DNA of 64,000 nt, taken from contig CAVRFW010000005.1 in NCBI GenBank assembly GCA_963720565.1, forward strand, positions 192,001-256,000. The letters run 5' to 3'. Positions 13,400-20,314 of this stretch are shown piece by piece. The first letter of the stretch is position 1. Each line of letters starts with the position of its first letter. Both the position numbers and the translations under genes were made by a program. The notes beneath the pieces were generated by a model. It did not search any database, had not been told where the DNA came from, and saw only the letters and a list, made by a program, of their open reading frames with translations. This DNA comes from Candidatus Bathyarchaeota archaeon. Its GTDB lineage: Archaea > Thermoproteota > Bathyarchaeia > Bathyarchaeales > Bathycorpusculaceae.

Positions 13400-13912
13400 T
13401 TACTCGTCGATTCTGATTGACCTTATCCCTCGTGAAAGGGCTGTCAGTCCTGTTCGGGCGAGTTCCAGTATGCCGTAGCTTTTCATTAGGTTGAGAAAAG
13501 CGTCTATTTTGTCCGGAGTTCCAGTGATTTCTATGGTTAATGTTTCCGGTGAAACATCAATCACGTGACCTCGGAACACTTCTACACAGTTGATTATGTC
13601 TGATCGGGTTTTCGTGTCTGGAACATTTACTTTGATCAGCGCTAGTTCTCTTGTGACGATACTTTCTGACTCCAGACTTGTGACTTTTACGACGTCTATT
13701 AGTTTGTTCATTTGCTTGACTATTTGTTCCAGGGTTTTGTCATCGCCGCTTACGGTTATGGTCATTCTGGTTATGCCCTTCTGTTCCGTGTGTCCGACCG
13801 TGATGCTTTCGATGTTAAATCCCCTGCGCCGGAACATGTTAGCTACGCTGTGCAATACTCCTGGCTTGTTTTCAACTAGTGCAGCAATGACTTTGGTTTT
13901 TCCGTTTTCCAT
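13400..13912 (-). CDS. ilvN: Acetolactate synthase small (regulatory) subunit
   Basis: ENKPGVL, RRGFNIESI, RELALIKV, ELARTG. Confidence 0.96.
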   Translation of the reverse strand: MENGKTKVIAALVENKPGVLHSVANMFRRRGFNIESITVGHTEQKGITRMTITVSGDDKTLEQIVKQMNKLIDVVKVTSLESESIVTRELALIKVNVPDTKTRSDIINCVEVFRGHVIDVSPETLTIEITGTPDKIDAFLNLMKSYGILELARTGLTALSRGIRSIRIDE

Positions 13913-15624
13913 TAATAGTCACCTACCTGCTGGTTTAAGCCACAACCCGGAGGAACCATGGGCACTACGTTTTCTTCTGAGGAGATTGGCACGTCGATGA
14001 CTGTTGTGACCTTGCTCTTCAGTGCTTTTTCAACGGCTTTTTGAAATTCTGCGACTGAGCCTACGCGGAATCCTTGAGCTCCGTACGCTTCTGCGAGTTT
14101 GACCAAGTCTGGATATGCACCAAGTTTAACTGCCATATAGCGGCTCTTGTAGAACATGCGTTGCCACTGGGCAACCATGCCTAAGACGCCGTTGTTGAGA
14201 ACGATAACGGTAACGGGTATGTCTTCGATTACGCTACACGCGAGTTCCTGTTCGGTCATAATGAAGCTGCCGTCGCCAGCTATGTCCACAACGTGTCGGT
14301 TGGGGCAGGCTGTTTTGGCGCCGATTGCTGCTGGGAAACCGAAGCCCATGGTGCCTAAGCCGCCGCTGCTTATGAACGTACGTGGTTTTATCGCTTTGAA
14401 GTAGAGCCCAGACCACATTTGGTTTTGTCCGACTTCTGTTGTGACTATGGTATCTTCTGGTAGGAGCTTCCGCAGCGCTTGCAGTAGTGGTTTAGGTTTC
14501 AGTTCTTTTGCTTCTCCGTTTTGCAGTGGATTGAGTAGTTGACGCGCTTCTTTGACGCGGCTAACCCAGGGTGAATCAGTCTTCTTTTTAGCTTGTTGGA
14601 TTAGGCGTTCGTAGATTGCGCTTAGGGCTTTTTTTGCGTCTGCAACTATGGGTATGTCTACTTCTATGTTTTTGCCGATTTCTGCGGCGTCGATGTCGAC
14701 GTGAATTTTTTTAGCTTCGGGGCAGAATGTGTCAGTATTACCTGTGGCGCGGTCTGAGAAACGTGTTCCAACTGCAAGCATCACGTCAGCTTCCAAAAGC
14801 AGTTTGTTGGCGAGGGGATTTCCATGCATGCCGATATTGCCAATGCTGAGGGGATGGATTTCTGGAAAGCTGCCCTTTCCCATGAAGGTGGTAGCAACGG
14901 GCGCCAGTAGTAGCTCGGCTACAGTTAGAAGTTCGTCTGATGCGTTGGCAGTAATAGTTCCGCCACCCGCGAGGATTACTGGTCTTTCTGCTTCGGCGAG
15001 TAGCTCAGAGGCTTTACGTATTTGAAGCGGATGTGGGTTGCCTGGGGGTTTGTAACCTCGGATGTCGATTTTATCCGAGAACTCGATTTGACCTACTTCA
15101 GCCTGAATGTTTTTTGGGAAGTCGATGAGGACAGGTCCCGGTCTGCCGGTGGTAGCGATGTAGAATGCAGAGTTAACTGTTAGCGGTATCTCGGATGGTG
15201 TGCGTATCTGATAGTTGTACTTTGTTATTGGGGTGGTGATGCCTATGATGTCGGCTTCCTGAAAAGCGTCTCTGCCGATCATGTATGTTGTATTGACGCC
15301 GCTGGATGGGACTTGCCCCGTTAACGCGATGACTGGCGAACTGTCCATATAGGCGTTTGCTATGCCAGTCACTAGGTTTGTTGCACCTGGACCGCTTGTG
15401 GCGAAGCAGACGCCGGCTCTACCGCTTGCGCGTGCATAGCCGTCAGCTGCGTGTGCAGCTCCCTGTTCGTGTCTGGCTAGAATGTGTCTAATACGCGGAT
15501 GATTGCATAGGGCATCGTATACGGGTAGGATTGCTCCCCCTAAGATGCCGAATACTTCTTTGACGCCTTGTCGTTCAAGTGAATCTAGTAGCGCATTTGC
15601 GCCTGTCATTTTTGTTGTTGTCAT
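13912..15624 (-). CDS. ilvB: Acetolactate synthase large subunit
   Basis: RHEQGA, TSGPGATN, FQEAD, SGGLGTMGFG, GDGSF, LGMVAQWQ. Confidence 0.97.
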   Translation of the reverse strand: MTTTKMTGANALLDSLERQGVKEVFGILGGAILPVYDALCNHPRIRHILARHEQGAAHAADGYARASGRAGVCFATSGPGATNLVTGIANAYMDSSPVIALTGQVPSSGVNTTYMIGRDAFQEADIIGITTPITKYNYQIRTPSEIPLTVNSAFYIATTGRPGPVLIDFPKNIQAEVGQIEFSDKIDIRGYKPPGNPHPLQIRKASELLAEAERPVILAGGGTITANASDELLTVAELLLAPVATTFMGKGSFPEIHPLSIGNIGMHGNPLANKLLLEADVMLAVGTRFSDRATGNTDTFCPEAKKIHVDIDAAEIGKNIEVDIPIVADAKKALSAIYERLIQQAKKKTDSPWVSRVKEARQLLNPLQNGEAKELKPKPLLQALRKLLPEDTIVTTEVGQNQMWSGLYFKAIKPRTFISSGGLGTMGFGFPAAIGAKTACPNRHVVDIAGDGSFIMTEQELACSVIEDIPVTVIVLNNGVLGMVAQWQRMFYKSRYMAVKLGAYPDLVKLAEAYGAQGFRVGSVAEFQKAVEKALKSKVTTVIDVPISSEENVVPMVPPGCGLNQQVGDY

Positions 15625-15854
15625 TCTTTTTGCTCCTTAGGTCAAGAAAGTGACGGTGTGCATTTCGTGGAACTTTATTGTTCGAGAAGTTGAATTTAAT
15701 GGTTTCTCGGAGGCAGTTTTAGAAGGTTCCCTGGGTGATTTGGAGAATGAGTACCCGACGATCCCAACTATTGAGGTGGCGATCCCTCATTTCAATTTTC
15801 CTCCGCGAAACTCCACGTACCGTGAAAAACCTAACATTCCACTCCAGATAAAAA
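15625..15854 (-). promoter_or_regulatory. ilvB promoter and ~200-nt structured leader
   Basis: TATA-like TTTTTAT at 15848-15854; nested complementary pairs 15800-15811/15702-15713 (11 of 12), 15812-15817/15666-15671, 15819-15823/15653-15657; ilvB SD AAGGAG at 15633-15638. Confidence 0.6.
15719..15790 (-). CDS. Putative ilv leader peptide MRDRHLNSWDRRVLILQITQGTF (23 aa)
   Basis: ATG at 15790 preceded by GGAGG (15800-15804, 9-nt spacer); TAA at 15719-15721; V-L-I-L-Q-I codon cluster; lies in the ilvB 5' leader; absent from ORF track. Confidence 0.6.
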   Translation of the reverse strand: MRDRHLNSWDRRVLILQITQGTF

Positions 15855-15964
15855 CATTACGGTGCTCCAATCTACGTCAAGGCAGTTGGCAAAACGCTGT
15901 AGTTTGAGAGCGCCTATTTTTGAGCTTTCAGCCTGTTGCATCTGTTCTTTTTGCTGTTCTGTTG

Positions 15965-17621: not shown

Positions 17622-17640
17622 ATAAATTTTATATTTAAGC
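17622..17640. promoter_or_regulatory. Shared AT-rich TATA region between divergent ilvD and cimA
   Basis: ATAAATTTTATATTTAAG reads as a TATA box on both strands in a 54-bp intergenic gap. Confidence 0.55.
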
Positions 17641-17647
17641 ATGGTGC

Positions 17648-19219
17648 TTGGAAGTGAACATCGTAAGTGATGAAAAATGGGGTATTGCTTTATCTAATCG
17701 CTTCCCTGAGAAGATAAGAATTTTTGACACCACCCTAAGAGATGGGGAACAGACCCCTGGAGTATCTTTAACACCTGAAAATAAACTGCGGATAGCGCAG
17801 CGTCTAGACGAGCTTGGTGTGGATGTTATCGAGGCTGGTTTTGCAGCTGTTTCTGATGGTGAGATGGAAGGAGTAGCGCTGATTGCCAGGCAGGGTTTGA
17901 AGGCGGAGATTTGTAGTGCTGCAAGAGGCGTGAAAGGCGACATTGATGCCGTGGTCAGGAGTGGCGCTGATAGTGTCCATTTGATTATACCTACTTCTGA
18001 TCTTCATATTGAGTGCAAGCTAAAGAAGACGCGGGATCAAGTACTGCAGATTACTGAAGACTGCGTAAGGTATGCTAAAGACCAAGGGTTGATCGTGGAG
18101 CTTTCAGCTGAAGACGCTACAAGGTCTGAGAGGGATTTTCTGAAGAGTGTCTTTAGAACAGGAATTGCTGCTGGAGCTGACCGAGTAGTCGCGTGCGATA
18201 CTGTCGGCGTTTTGACGCCTGAAAAATCATATGCGCTTTTCGCTGACTTGCGAAAGTCGCTTAAGGTTCCCGTGGTAAGCGTTCACTGTCATAACGATTT
18301 CGGTATGGCAGTGGCGAACTCGATCGCTGCTATAAGGGGCGGTGCGAACCAGTTTCACGCTACGATTAACGGTTTAGGCGAAAGGGCTGGAAACGCCTCT
18401 TTGGAAGAGATTGTGATCGGGCTGAAGTCGTTATACAAGCTTGATCTTAACGTAAAGACAGACTTGCTTTACAGCACATCACAGCTTGTGTCGCGGCTAA
18501 CTGGGGTTTACCTGCAACCTAACAAGGCGATAGTGGGCGAAAACGCTTTCACCCATGAGTCTGGGATTCACACGCAAGGTTTGTTGGCTAATCCTTTGAC
18601 TTACGAGTCTATTTCGCCAGAATTAGTTGGTGGTACAAGACGAATTTCAGCGGGAAAACACTCTGGAACGCATGGAATACGTGATGCACTCGAGAAGTTT
18701 GGTTTGAATCCGACAGATAAACAGTTTAAAGAGATCTTCCTCAGAGTGAAAAGCGTGGGAGACAAAGGCAAAACAGTTATGGATGCAGATGTGCTGGCGA
18801 TTGCAGAAAGCGTTATGGGCTTAAGCAAGGAAAAACCGATACAGCTGCAGGAGCTCACAGTCGTCGCTGGAGACAAAGTCACGTCCACAGCTTCAGTGCG
18901 ACTTAAGCTTAATGAGAAGGAAGTTTGGGGCGCAGCTATAGGGGTGGGTCCGGTAGACGCTGCCATAAACGCTGTGAAAAAAGCCATCCAAGAAGTGCAG
19001 CCGATTCATTTGGAGCAGTACAACGTCAAGGCGATTACAGGGGGAACTGACGCCATGGTTGAAGTTGTGGTGCGCATGAGGAAAGGCGGCAGAACAGCGA
19101 CTGCGATGGGTGTTCGTGAGGACATTGTGATGGCAAGCATGGATGCAGTGCTCAGCGCCATGAACGTGTTATCCACAGACTATAACGGCGTAAACAACAA
19201 ACCAGCAAAACAGCGTTAA
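17648..19219 (+). CDS. cimA: (R)-citramalate synthase (LeuA paralog)
   Basis: DTTLRDGEQ with VHLIIPTS, ELSAEDATR and CDTVGVLTP segments typical of archaeal CimA; exact start uncertain (TTG 17648 or GTG 17654). Confidence 0.78.
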   Translation: MEVNIVSDEKWGIALSNRFPEKIRIFDTTLRDGEQTPGVSLTPENKLRIAQRLDELGVDVIEAGFAAVSDGEMEGVALIARQGLKAEICSAARGVKGDIDAVVRSGADSVHLIIPTSDLHIECKLKKTRDQVLQITEDCVRYAKDQGLIVELSAEDATRSERDFLKSVFRTGIAAGADRVVACDTVGVLTPEKSYALFADLRKSLKVPVVSVHCHNDFGMAVANSIAAIRGGANQFHATINGLGERAGNASLEEIVIGLKSLYKLDLNVKTDLLYSTSQLVSRLTGVYLQPNKAIVGENAFTHESGIHTQGLLANPLTYESISPELVGGTRRISAGKHSGTHGIRDALEKFGLNPTDKQFKEIFLRVKSVGDKGKTVMDADVLAIAESVMGLSKEKPIQLQELTVVAGDKVTSTASVRLKLNEKEVWGAAIGVGPVDAAINAVKKAIQEVQPIHLEQYNVKAITGGTDAMVEVVVRMRKGGRTATAMGVREDIVMASMDAVLSAMNVLSTDYNGVNNKPAKQR

Positions 19220-19328: not shown

Positions 19329-20099
19329 TTATGCGCTTGTTTTGGGGGGTGGCTGTATGCGTCTGCCGAGTTTTATGCGTAGGGCTACGCGGTATAGTTT
19401 TCTTAGCGACTTGACTAGTTGTTCGAGGTTTGGGGCGTCGGAGTAGATGAGTGGTATCTGCTCGTATTCTGCTAGTTTTGTGGCTGCCTCGTTGGGTTTT
19501 ATGCGGTGAAAAACTATCACTCGAGGTTTGAGGCTGCTGACGCGCACGATCATCATCGGGAGTACTCCGTCTTCGATGTTTGTGAAGACAAGAGCCCGGT
19601 CAGTTGAGGCTCCAAATAATTGGGCGTATTCCAAGCCTGACAATGCTTCAACTGCTTTTCGGCTGTCGACTACGGTGTAACCGTTGATTTCCTTCACGTA
19701 CTTGTCTGGGCTGGTTACCATTTCGCCGTTTATTGCTCGGCATAGGTATTCGACACGAACTGGAATCGGAAACTCTCTTAGGTCCACAATTGCCATGCTT
19801 GGTGAACTTGTTAGTTTCTCGAATTCTCTGATGAAGCGGCTGCCCTTTTCTTCATCAATCTGTAGAAGCGATAGGACAAACCTTCGTATGAATTTGGCGC
19901 CTGGGCTTTCTCTTCTGCCGCTTTCATAGTCACTTATGACTGCAGAGGATGATAGGCGCATCTTTTCTGAAAGCGTTATTTGGGAAACGGCGAAGAGTTC
20001 ACGCCATCTTCTCATTGTCGCGCCGGGTTTGCTTGAAAGGATTATCTCTCCTGCGATTCTTCTCGCCAAAACTTCTCGGATACCCGGGGAAAACGACAT
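19329..20099 (-). CDS. Archaeal XRE-type HTH transcriptional regulator (COG1709-like)
   Basis: RIAGEII, WRELF..SQ, ISDYESGRR.SPG HTH, C-terminal DRALVFT; alternative GTG start at 20129. Confidence 0.85.
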   Translation of the reverse strand: MSFSPGIREVLARRIAGEIILSSKPGATMRRWRELFAVSQITLSEKMRLSSSAVISDYESGRRESPGAKFIRRFVLSLLQIDEEKGSRFIREFEKLTSSPSMAIVDLREFPIPVRVEYLCRAINGEMVTSPDKYVKEINGYTVVDSRKAVEALSGLEYAQLFGASTDRALVFTNIEDGVLPMMIVRVSSLKPRVIVFHRIKPNEAATKLAEYEQIPLIYSDAPNLEQLVKSLRKLYRVALRIKLGRRIQPPPKTSA

Positions 20100-20314
20100 G
20101 CGCAGCCCTTCAAATAGCAACCCCTTCACGGATTAAGTATAAAACTTTAGCGCTTTCCAGATACAGAATAGGCTGCCAGTATTTCCGGTTCTTGAATTGC
20201 GTTTATTAGGAAGTTTGCTCATAAAAACGGGTAACGTTCCGTGTTAAAGGATAGACTACATAGAACGTTACTAGCACCACAGTGAAACAACAAAAAAAAG
20301 GAGTGAATGGAAAA

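Follow-up and report, generated by a model that had tools for sequence, protein, structure and literature searches.

The window analysed here is a 64,000-nt stretch of a Bathyarchaeota contig in which ilvB is separated from ilvD by a 340-nt gap on the minus strand and is followed downstream by ilvN and then leu genes. A cimA/leuA-like synthase gene is divergent from ilvD. Beside this ilv/leu cluster lies an ORF of 266 aa with an HTH-like N-terminus (window 19329–20129, minus strand), possibly a regulator, for which a search of NCBIfam at 1e-20 returned no match. The 340-nt gap is the ilvB leader, and its features are collected in Table 1. The TATA-like box proposed in the initial annotation is real, its TTTA core being invariant in 137 of 137 aligned leaders, and transcription probably starts near 15823. 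The leader was matched as DNA in 118 of the 301 genomes of the family, and its close homologues come mostly from Bathyarchaeia records. Rfam covariance models gave two chance-level matches (E 7.1 and 8.5), both outside the leader. A minus-strand scan that models bacterial terminators only detected no terminator-like site, in agreement with the initial annotation, which had seen no hairpin-plus-U-tract terminator.

Table 1. Features of the ilvB leader and of the neighboring cassette (positions are those of the window).
Feature	Position	Strand	Basis
Archaeal promoter: BRE-like ACCGTAA (15863–15857) and TATA box (15854–15849)	15849..15863	-	TTTA core conserved
Helix H3, predicted to bury the uORF SD: 15811–15800 with 15713–15702	15702..15811	-	folding and homologue comparison
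uORF Shine-Dalgarno (SD), GGAGG	15800..15804	-	duplex with own 16S 3' end, -9.5 kcal/mol
uORF, frame 0, 23 codons, MRDRHLNSWDRRV...	15719..15790	-	ORF call
Two family-level hairpins: GAGG/CCUC (15788–15785/15776–15773) and 15767–15763/15735–15731	15731..15789	-	one-sided changes only
Module 1: SD-like GAGGGAUC (15788–15781), predicted P-site CAC (15778–15776), putative Leu sensor CUC (15775–15773)	15773..15788	-	
Module 2: SD-like GGGAUC (15765–15760), predicted P-site CGG (15757–15755), putative Val sensor GUA (15754–15752)	15752..15765	-	
Start-less +1 frame, 49 codons; 5' limit the TGA inside ATGA, ending at TAA 12 nt before the ilvB ATG	15637..15786	-	ORF call
ilvB SD, GGAG, immediately 3' of the +1-frame stop	15633..15636	-	sequence, 16S duplex check
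ilvB, biosynthetic acetolactate synthase large subunit	13912..15624	-	TIGR00118 above cut-off
Second cassette: six-codon uORF MGYCFI*, Ile codon 6 after UUU	17677..17697	+	cimA/leuA-like synthase continues in +1

The short uORF within the leader was likewise annotated correctly. Among 141 distinct leaders it begins with ATG or GTG and ends with TAA (67), TGA (45) or TAG (29), and its length is nearly fixed, at 16 codons in 108 leaders and 19 codons in 21. The GAGG of its SD is kept in 133–137 of 137 leaders, depending on the position. One leader (L209) has ACG in place of the uORF start codon, and an ATG in the same frame lies two codons before it. The V-L-I-L run that closes the uORF varies among the leaders, and the codons that are conserved are a single Leu codon at position 6 and a single Val codon at position 13. 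In the 133 full-length cores on which invariance was counted (five shorter variants were left out), codon 6 is CTC and codon 13 is GTA without exception. The AGG in the uORF head is also invariant (133/133), the Leu codon is preceded by CAC in 128 of the 133 cores, and the codon before Val is CGG in 112 and TGG in 21. Each of the two codons stands behind an SD-like stretch, and the predicted duplexes of these stretches with the 16S 3' end (-11.6 kcal/mol for the head of module 1 and -7.5 kcal/mol for that of module 2) each end 2 nt short of the codon that precedes the sensor, codon 5 and codon 12, respectively. The cassette head is in fact predicted to form a stronger duplex with the organism's own 16S 3' end than either real SD does. 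We infer a sensing role for both modules.

The initial annotation had missed a second reading frame, +1 relative to the uORF, that lacks a start of its own and runs to ilvB. With 138 of the 141 leaders anchorable on ilvB, and a frame counted as open when it reached a point no more than 30 nt from the conserved Met of ilvB, the +1 frame was found to be open in 134 of 138 leaders versus 24 expected from dinucleotide shuffles. These leader counts include kin and are not independent; among 32 representatives that are <70% identical, however, the frame is open in 31 versus 4.4 expected. Stops downstream of the uORF end number 323 in frame 0, 7 in +1 and 203 in +2, and the +1 frame most often ends as an ATGA or TTGA overlap on the ilvB start. 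A start-less frame of this kind can be entered only from another frame, and we consider it very likely that ribosomes enter the +1 frame by a shift of some kind. Past the modules, the +1 frame is poor in Leu, Ile and Val codons (15.3% versus 25.9% in shuffles). The possibility that the +1 peptide is a functional leader peptide was rejected, as its tail is poorly conserved and frame-changing indels separate neighbors: among 85 nearest pairs, 12 differ by net indels not divisible by three and 9 by indels divisible by three, and 64 have none. Frame-changing indels between such near neighbors suggest that the open path rather than the peptide seems to be selected. In one leader (L110), a 1-nt frame change after the modules leaves frame 0 open for 133 codons and closes +1 at codon 15, which could reflect lost control or an assembly error. 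With respect to U-tract termination as an off state, a U4 tract is found in 111 of 137 spacers versus 42 expected, but A4 is found in 100. The ilvB SD is on average 0.44 unpaired across 132 leaders, and its burial therefore does not account for an off state of ilvB in the absence of the shift.

The +1 frame could also be a constitutive coupling frame reached through a non-AUG start or transcriptional slippage, with the uORF acting as a decoy that senses nothing. RNA runs over the region gave only short contigs of relatives (the best matched <0.1 of words, and one library is possibly DNA) and speak neither for nor against slippage. We regard such a frame as very unlikely because an SD-led start occurs within the +1 frame in only 1 of 138 leaders, with any ATG at all in 20, and because the match of codon 6 to each pathway, described below, would go unexplained. 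As a point against the frameshift reading, the +1 frame of the window holds an ATG at 15663, which is SD-less. Slippage also fits poorly with an ilvB cassette in which no base run is longer than three, as a run of three is short for slippage by RNA polymerase.

To avoid leaders picked by similarity, 59 ilvB loci were chosen by protein match across several families of the order. A first count, which used the first match only and the 30 nt cut-off, gave 53 loci with an open frame, 3 with a closed frame and 3 without a cassette. For the recount an SD was required, any codon 3 was accepted, and the cut-off was 35 nt, a value set after two loci had been found at 31 nt. On this basis 58 of the 59 loci have an SD-led uORF starting RTG-RGG, with codon 6 being Leu in 38, Val in 19 and Ile in 1, and each of the 58 has a +1 frame that extends to ilvB or is fused with it. 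The lone exception sits behind a cimA-like gene that bears a cassette. Many of these loci carry a second module at the same spacing, and Leu and Val modules are found in either order. Distant leaders share no downstream sequence, yet their +1 frame stays open. At one locus (L500) a Leu cassette has ilvB itself fused into its +1 frame. At another (L247) the part of the ilvB leader is played by an Ile cassette followed by a short cimA-like remnant, a hint that truncation of fused genes can give rise to delivery frames.

The same cassette head, consisting of a start, RGG, three further codons and the candidate sensor at codon 6, precedes several other pathway genes. At trpE, 28 of 30 protein-picked loci have NUU-UGG (Trp), and their +1 frame leads straight into the enzyme; the codon before UGG is NUU in 28/28, and 10 of the 28 lack an in-frame start ahead of the aligned part, with some other in-frame start present in 18. 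No trpE was found in the genome under study, which is 88.8% complete. The cimA-like synthase has UUU-AUY (Ile) at 29 of 30 loci, including the copy in the window, again with the gene in the +1 frame. An in-frame start is lacking in 18 of the 29, and 11 have some other one; in the window the first in-frame start after the cassette is 46 codons in. The TTG (17648) and GTG (17654) listed as starts of this gene are near a TATA-like sequence (17627–17634) and probably lie at or before the transcription start. At four loci the cimA-like gene heads a cimA-ilvB operon, with Val and Ile modules in one uORF and the gene fused in +1 (L288, L290, L292 and L294). Four pattern-picked leaders of leuC-like genes, named by likeness to the leuC of the window rather than by HMM, have a Leu sensor. 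Of 34 hisG loci, 8 have His at codon 6, one more cassette is broken by a stop, and 25 have none. Six of the 8, the locus of this genome among them, carry another His module in a +1 frame that closes after it, and hisG is reached by the +2 frame, the pattern expected from two +1 shifts in succession. The hisG leader of this genome (G000:C9:204347-204560, plus strand; locus L580) has its two His modules in successive frames, and its +2 frame stops at the hisG start region. Two other leaders (L558 and L576) have a single His module and a +1 frame whose stop coincides with the start of hisG.

Outside the class, four genomes of the same phylum have a Trp cassette at trpS, encoding tryptophan-tRNA ligase, with the gene in +1 (L456–L459), and one genome has a Trp cassette on trpE. 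These are the five real-looking cases among 24 loci examined, and three of the five were HMM-checked. No cassette was detected at 16 loci of the argG/asd/argC type in five genomes, and a search for PF00793 in the same five gave no match. Searches of whole genomes with an SD-plus-head pattern returned mostly chance matches and were used for leads only. Taken together, we lean towards the view that a modular "hungry-codon" cassette runs amino acid control in Bathyarchaeia and at least some other Thermoproteota. As part of this view, swapping the sensor (Leu, Val, Ile, Trp or His) would retune the cassette, modules in one frame (ilvB) would act as OR and modules in successive frames (hisG) as AND, and the output would be the enzyme or else a delivery frame to which the enzyme gene is coupled.

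After a +1 slip on CAC-C, tRNA-His should keep one of three pairs, and on NGG-G before the Val codon two of three should re-form; the poor re-pairing on CAC suggests that the Leu module may be weak or may shift by another route. It is conceivable that the +1 shift is real but takes place elsewhere or by another route, for instance at codon 2 (RGG-G), through tRNA binding to the A site out of frame, or through a stall followed by a restart, with codon 6 setting the dwell. Such a shift would account for the invariant AGG and for the variation at codons 2–4, which already looks synonymous in the +1 frame (14 synonymous and 16 non-synonymous changes in +1 versus 6 and 25 in frame 0), although 16S pairing can explain this variation as well as an earlier shift site can. 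Another site is unlikely, however, because the codon matched to the pathway stands in frame 0 at position 6 in trpE, cimA-like, ilvB and hisG cassettes alike, indicating that frame 0 is read that far, and because NUU immediately precedes the sensor in every trpE cassette. The internal SD of module 1 overlaps the uORF start codon, and an initiating SD placed too close can interfere (PMC5009743).

The initial annotation had offered a different switch. It nested three helices in the leader and proposed that the position of the ribosome on the uORF toggles an anti-SD strand between an upstream helix, which buries the uORF SD, and the ilvB SD, with no frameshift. All of the strands it named are present in the sequence, but the helices fared unevenly. 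H1 (15819–15823 with 15653–15657) is weak in the window, with a pair probability of 0.13–0.51, H2 (15812–15817 with 15666–15671) is moderate at 0.49–0.62, and H3 is likely at 0.69–0.81, but H1 and H2 are not conserved in homologues. The proposed CGAGAA/UUCUCG competitor (15683–15688) has a pair probability of 0.18–0.28 in the window. In alignment-dependent counts, H1 pairs hold in 15–109 and H2 pairs in 27–98 of 137 aligned homologues, and at 8 of the 12 H3 positions most of the sequences have a gap. Covariation of H1–H3 in homologous leaders was looked for and not found. RNAalifold applied to 8 close leaders returned neither H1 nor H2 and a 3-pair remnant in the H3 region, with a two-sided change in 2 of 21 consensus pairs. 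The whole leader folds no better than its shuffles (z -0.48; 61 of 200 shuffled sequences did as well). According to the folding models, the only feature of this switch that is conserved is burial of the leader's own SD (mean unpaired 0.14 versus 0.35 in shuffles of 33 leaders). The strand just past the uORF stop does bury it in the window, but most relatives use another strand, located at the uORF stop and aligned to 15725–15721.

A toggled anti-SD has in its favor the likely H3 in the window, the burial above shuffles and the presence of an SD of its own at ilvB. In an equilibrium folding model with a 30-nt ribosome footprint and without pseudoknots or kinetics, however, the anti-SD CUCC paired with the ilvB SD with a probability of 0.00 in all four ribosome states, and the SD was 0.62–0.65 unpaired in the window whichever state was modelled. 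Across 63 homologues its mean was 0.46–0.48 unpaired over the states modelled (ribosome free, or placed at Leu6, Val13 or the stop), and stalling opened it by >0.2 in 1 of the 63. H1 and H2 are poorly retained, distant leaders without common downstream sequence keep the +1 frame open, and a toggle cannot explain the genes that are fused in that frame. We therefore hold it to be very improbable indeed, and an SD switch built on these helices is not supported by the modelling. The initial annotation correctly saw an ilv leader whose uORF is translated and whose control depends on the ribosome and involves no terminator; it had found a real regulatory leader and given it the wrong switch.

We instead consider it likely that the ilvB leader is an amino acid-sensing +1 frameshift switch coupled to ilvB. 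The direct observations behind this reading are the two frames, the invariant Leu6 and Val13, the matched codon 6 at other genes and the predicted 16S pairing. When Leu and Val are plentiful, the ribosome would read both codons and end at the uORF stop, leaving ilvB poorly translated. A shortage of charged tRNA-Leu or tRNA-Val would make it wait with the sensor codon in the A site, and the SD-like stretch behind it would pair with the 16S 3' end and promote a slip of one base forward. The slipped ribosome would then travel about 40 codons of the +1 frame, keeping the RNA covered as it goes, terminate beside the ilvB start and reinitiate. With two modules in one frame the leader would sense "Leu OR Val", and the helix over the uORF SD would likely serve as a secondary brake on reloading. 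A shift on starvation would raise ilvB output, a direction that fits biosynthetic control. The 12-nt gap between stop and start in the window lies in the range of weakened reinitiation in Haloferax, where reinitiation drops to 40–60% at gaps like this one (PMC10666635). Further points against this reading are the other in-frame starts of many trpE and cimA-like genes and the lack of a cassette at most hisG loci and at the argG/asd/argC-type loci examined.

According to a 2016 review of frameshifting (PMC5009743), no starvation ("hungry codon") frameshift giving starvation-specific proteins was known. The cassettes described here look like a whole family of starvation frameshifts, and their natural sensor swaps make the idea directly testable. 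If it is correct, an abundant class of sediment archaea regulates amino acid synthesis without bacterial attenuators, using an archaeal counterpart of attenuation that is built on recoding, and archaeal ribosomes make use of internal SD pairing during elongation. The starts of trpE and cimA-like genes would then be misassigned in these genomes, and synthetic biology would gain a compact tool in a cassette of about 18 nt that responds to a single amino acid.

Among known systems, the leader-peptide attenuators of ilvB (PMC1262725) and the LEU element (PMC11857589) of Actinobacteria resemble the ilvB leader in having a uORF with branched-chain codons and an output expected to rise on starvation. 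They differ from it in relying on runs of Ile, Val or Leu codons and on terminator hairpins or an SD-sequestering stem. The leader described here has single, spaced codons and a second open frame: Leu6 and Val13 are the only invariant sensors, the terminal VLIL being variable, the scan for bacterial-type terminators found no terminator-like site on the minus strand that could form a terminator/antiterminator pair, and in the equilibrium model the position of the ribosome was without effect on ilvB SD pairing. The stop of the +1 frame at the ilvB start recalls archaeal termination-reinitiation, in which the upstream stop is on or a few nt from the downstream start (PMC10666635, PMC6728339), but the upstream frame here has no start of its own and can be entered only from another frame. 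A 2025 review of translational coupling (PMC12548453) does not use the term "frameshift", and a search of open PMC papers and the main texts of bioRxiv preprints found no report of the cassette.

A closer parallel is provided by ermCL, where a ketolide-induced frameshift in the uORF of the ermC leader carries the ribosome through the spacer and turns on the gene (PMC5009743). In the ilvB leader, too, the new frame would bridge the spacer and bring the ribosome to the gene under control. ermCL responds to a drug and its shift unfolds the mRNA, whereas here a starved codon is the apparent trigger and the new frame appears to be selected to end at the start codon. The gene context and the sensor codons point to amino acid supply as the signal, rather than to an antibiotic that binds the ribosome.

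The nearest likeness is to prfB, the release factor 2 gene, which is controlled in bacteria by an autoregulatory +1 frameshift (PMC5009743). Like prfB, the cassette has a short zero-frame ORF with a useful +1 continuation and a predicted internal SD near the putative shift codon, and it would use a slow A-site codon as sensor and shift in the +1 direction. SD-stimulated +1 shifts have a spacing of 3 nt (PMC5009743), and the predicted 16S duplex places the internal SD of the cassette at about this distance from its shift codon. Re-pairing on the shift codon is most like that of prfB (CUU_U) in the trpE cassettes, all 28 of which have NUU-U, with two of three pairs predicted for NGG-G and one of three for CAC-C. 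The cassette differs in its archaeal host and in the position of its sensor at codon 6, in modules arranged in parallel (ilvB) or in series (hisG), and in an ilvB +1 frame that would serve as a delivery frame to a separate gene. Most importantly, its putative sensor is a sense codon for an amino acid of the pathway (Leu, Val, Ile, Trp or His) and not UGA, which sets the cassette outside both the prfB and the ermCL class.
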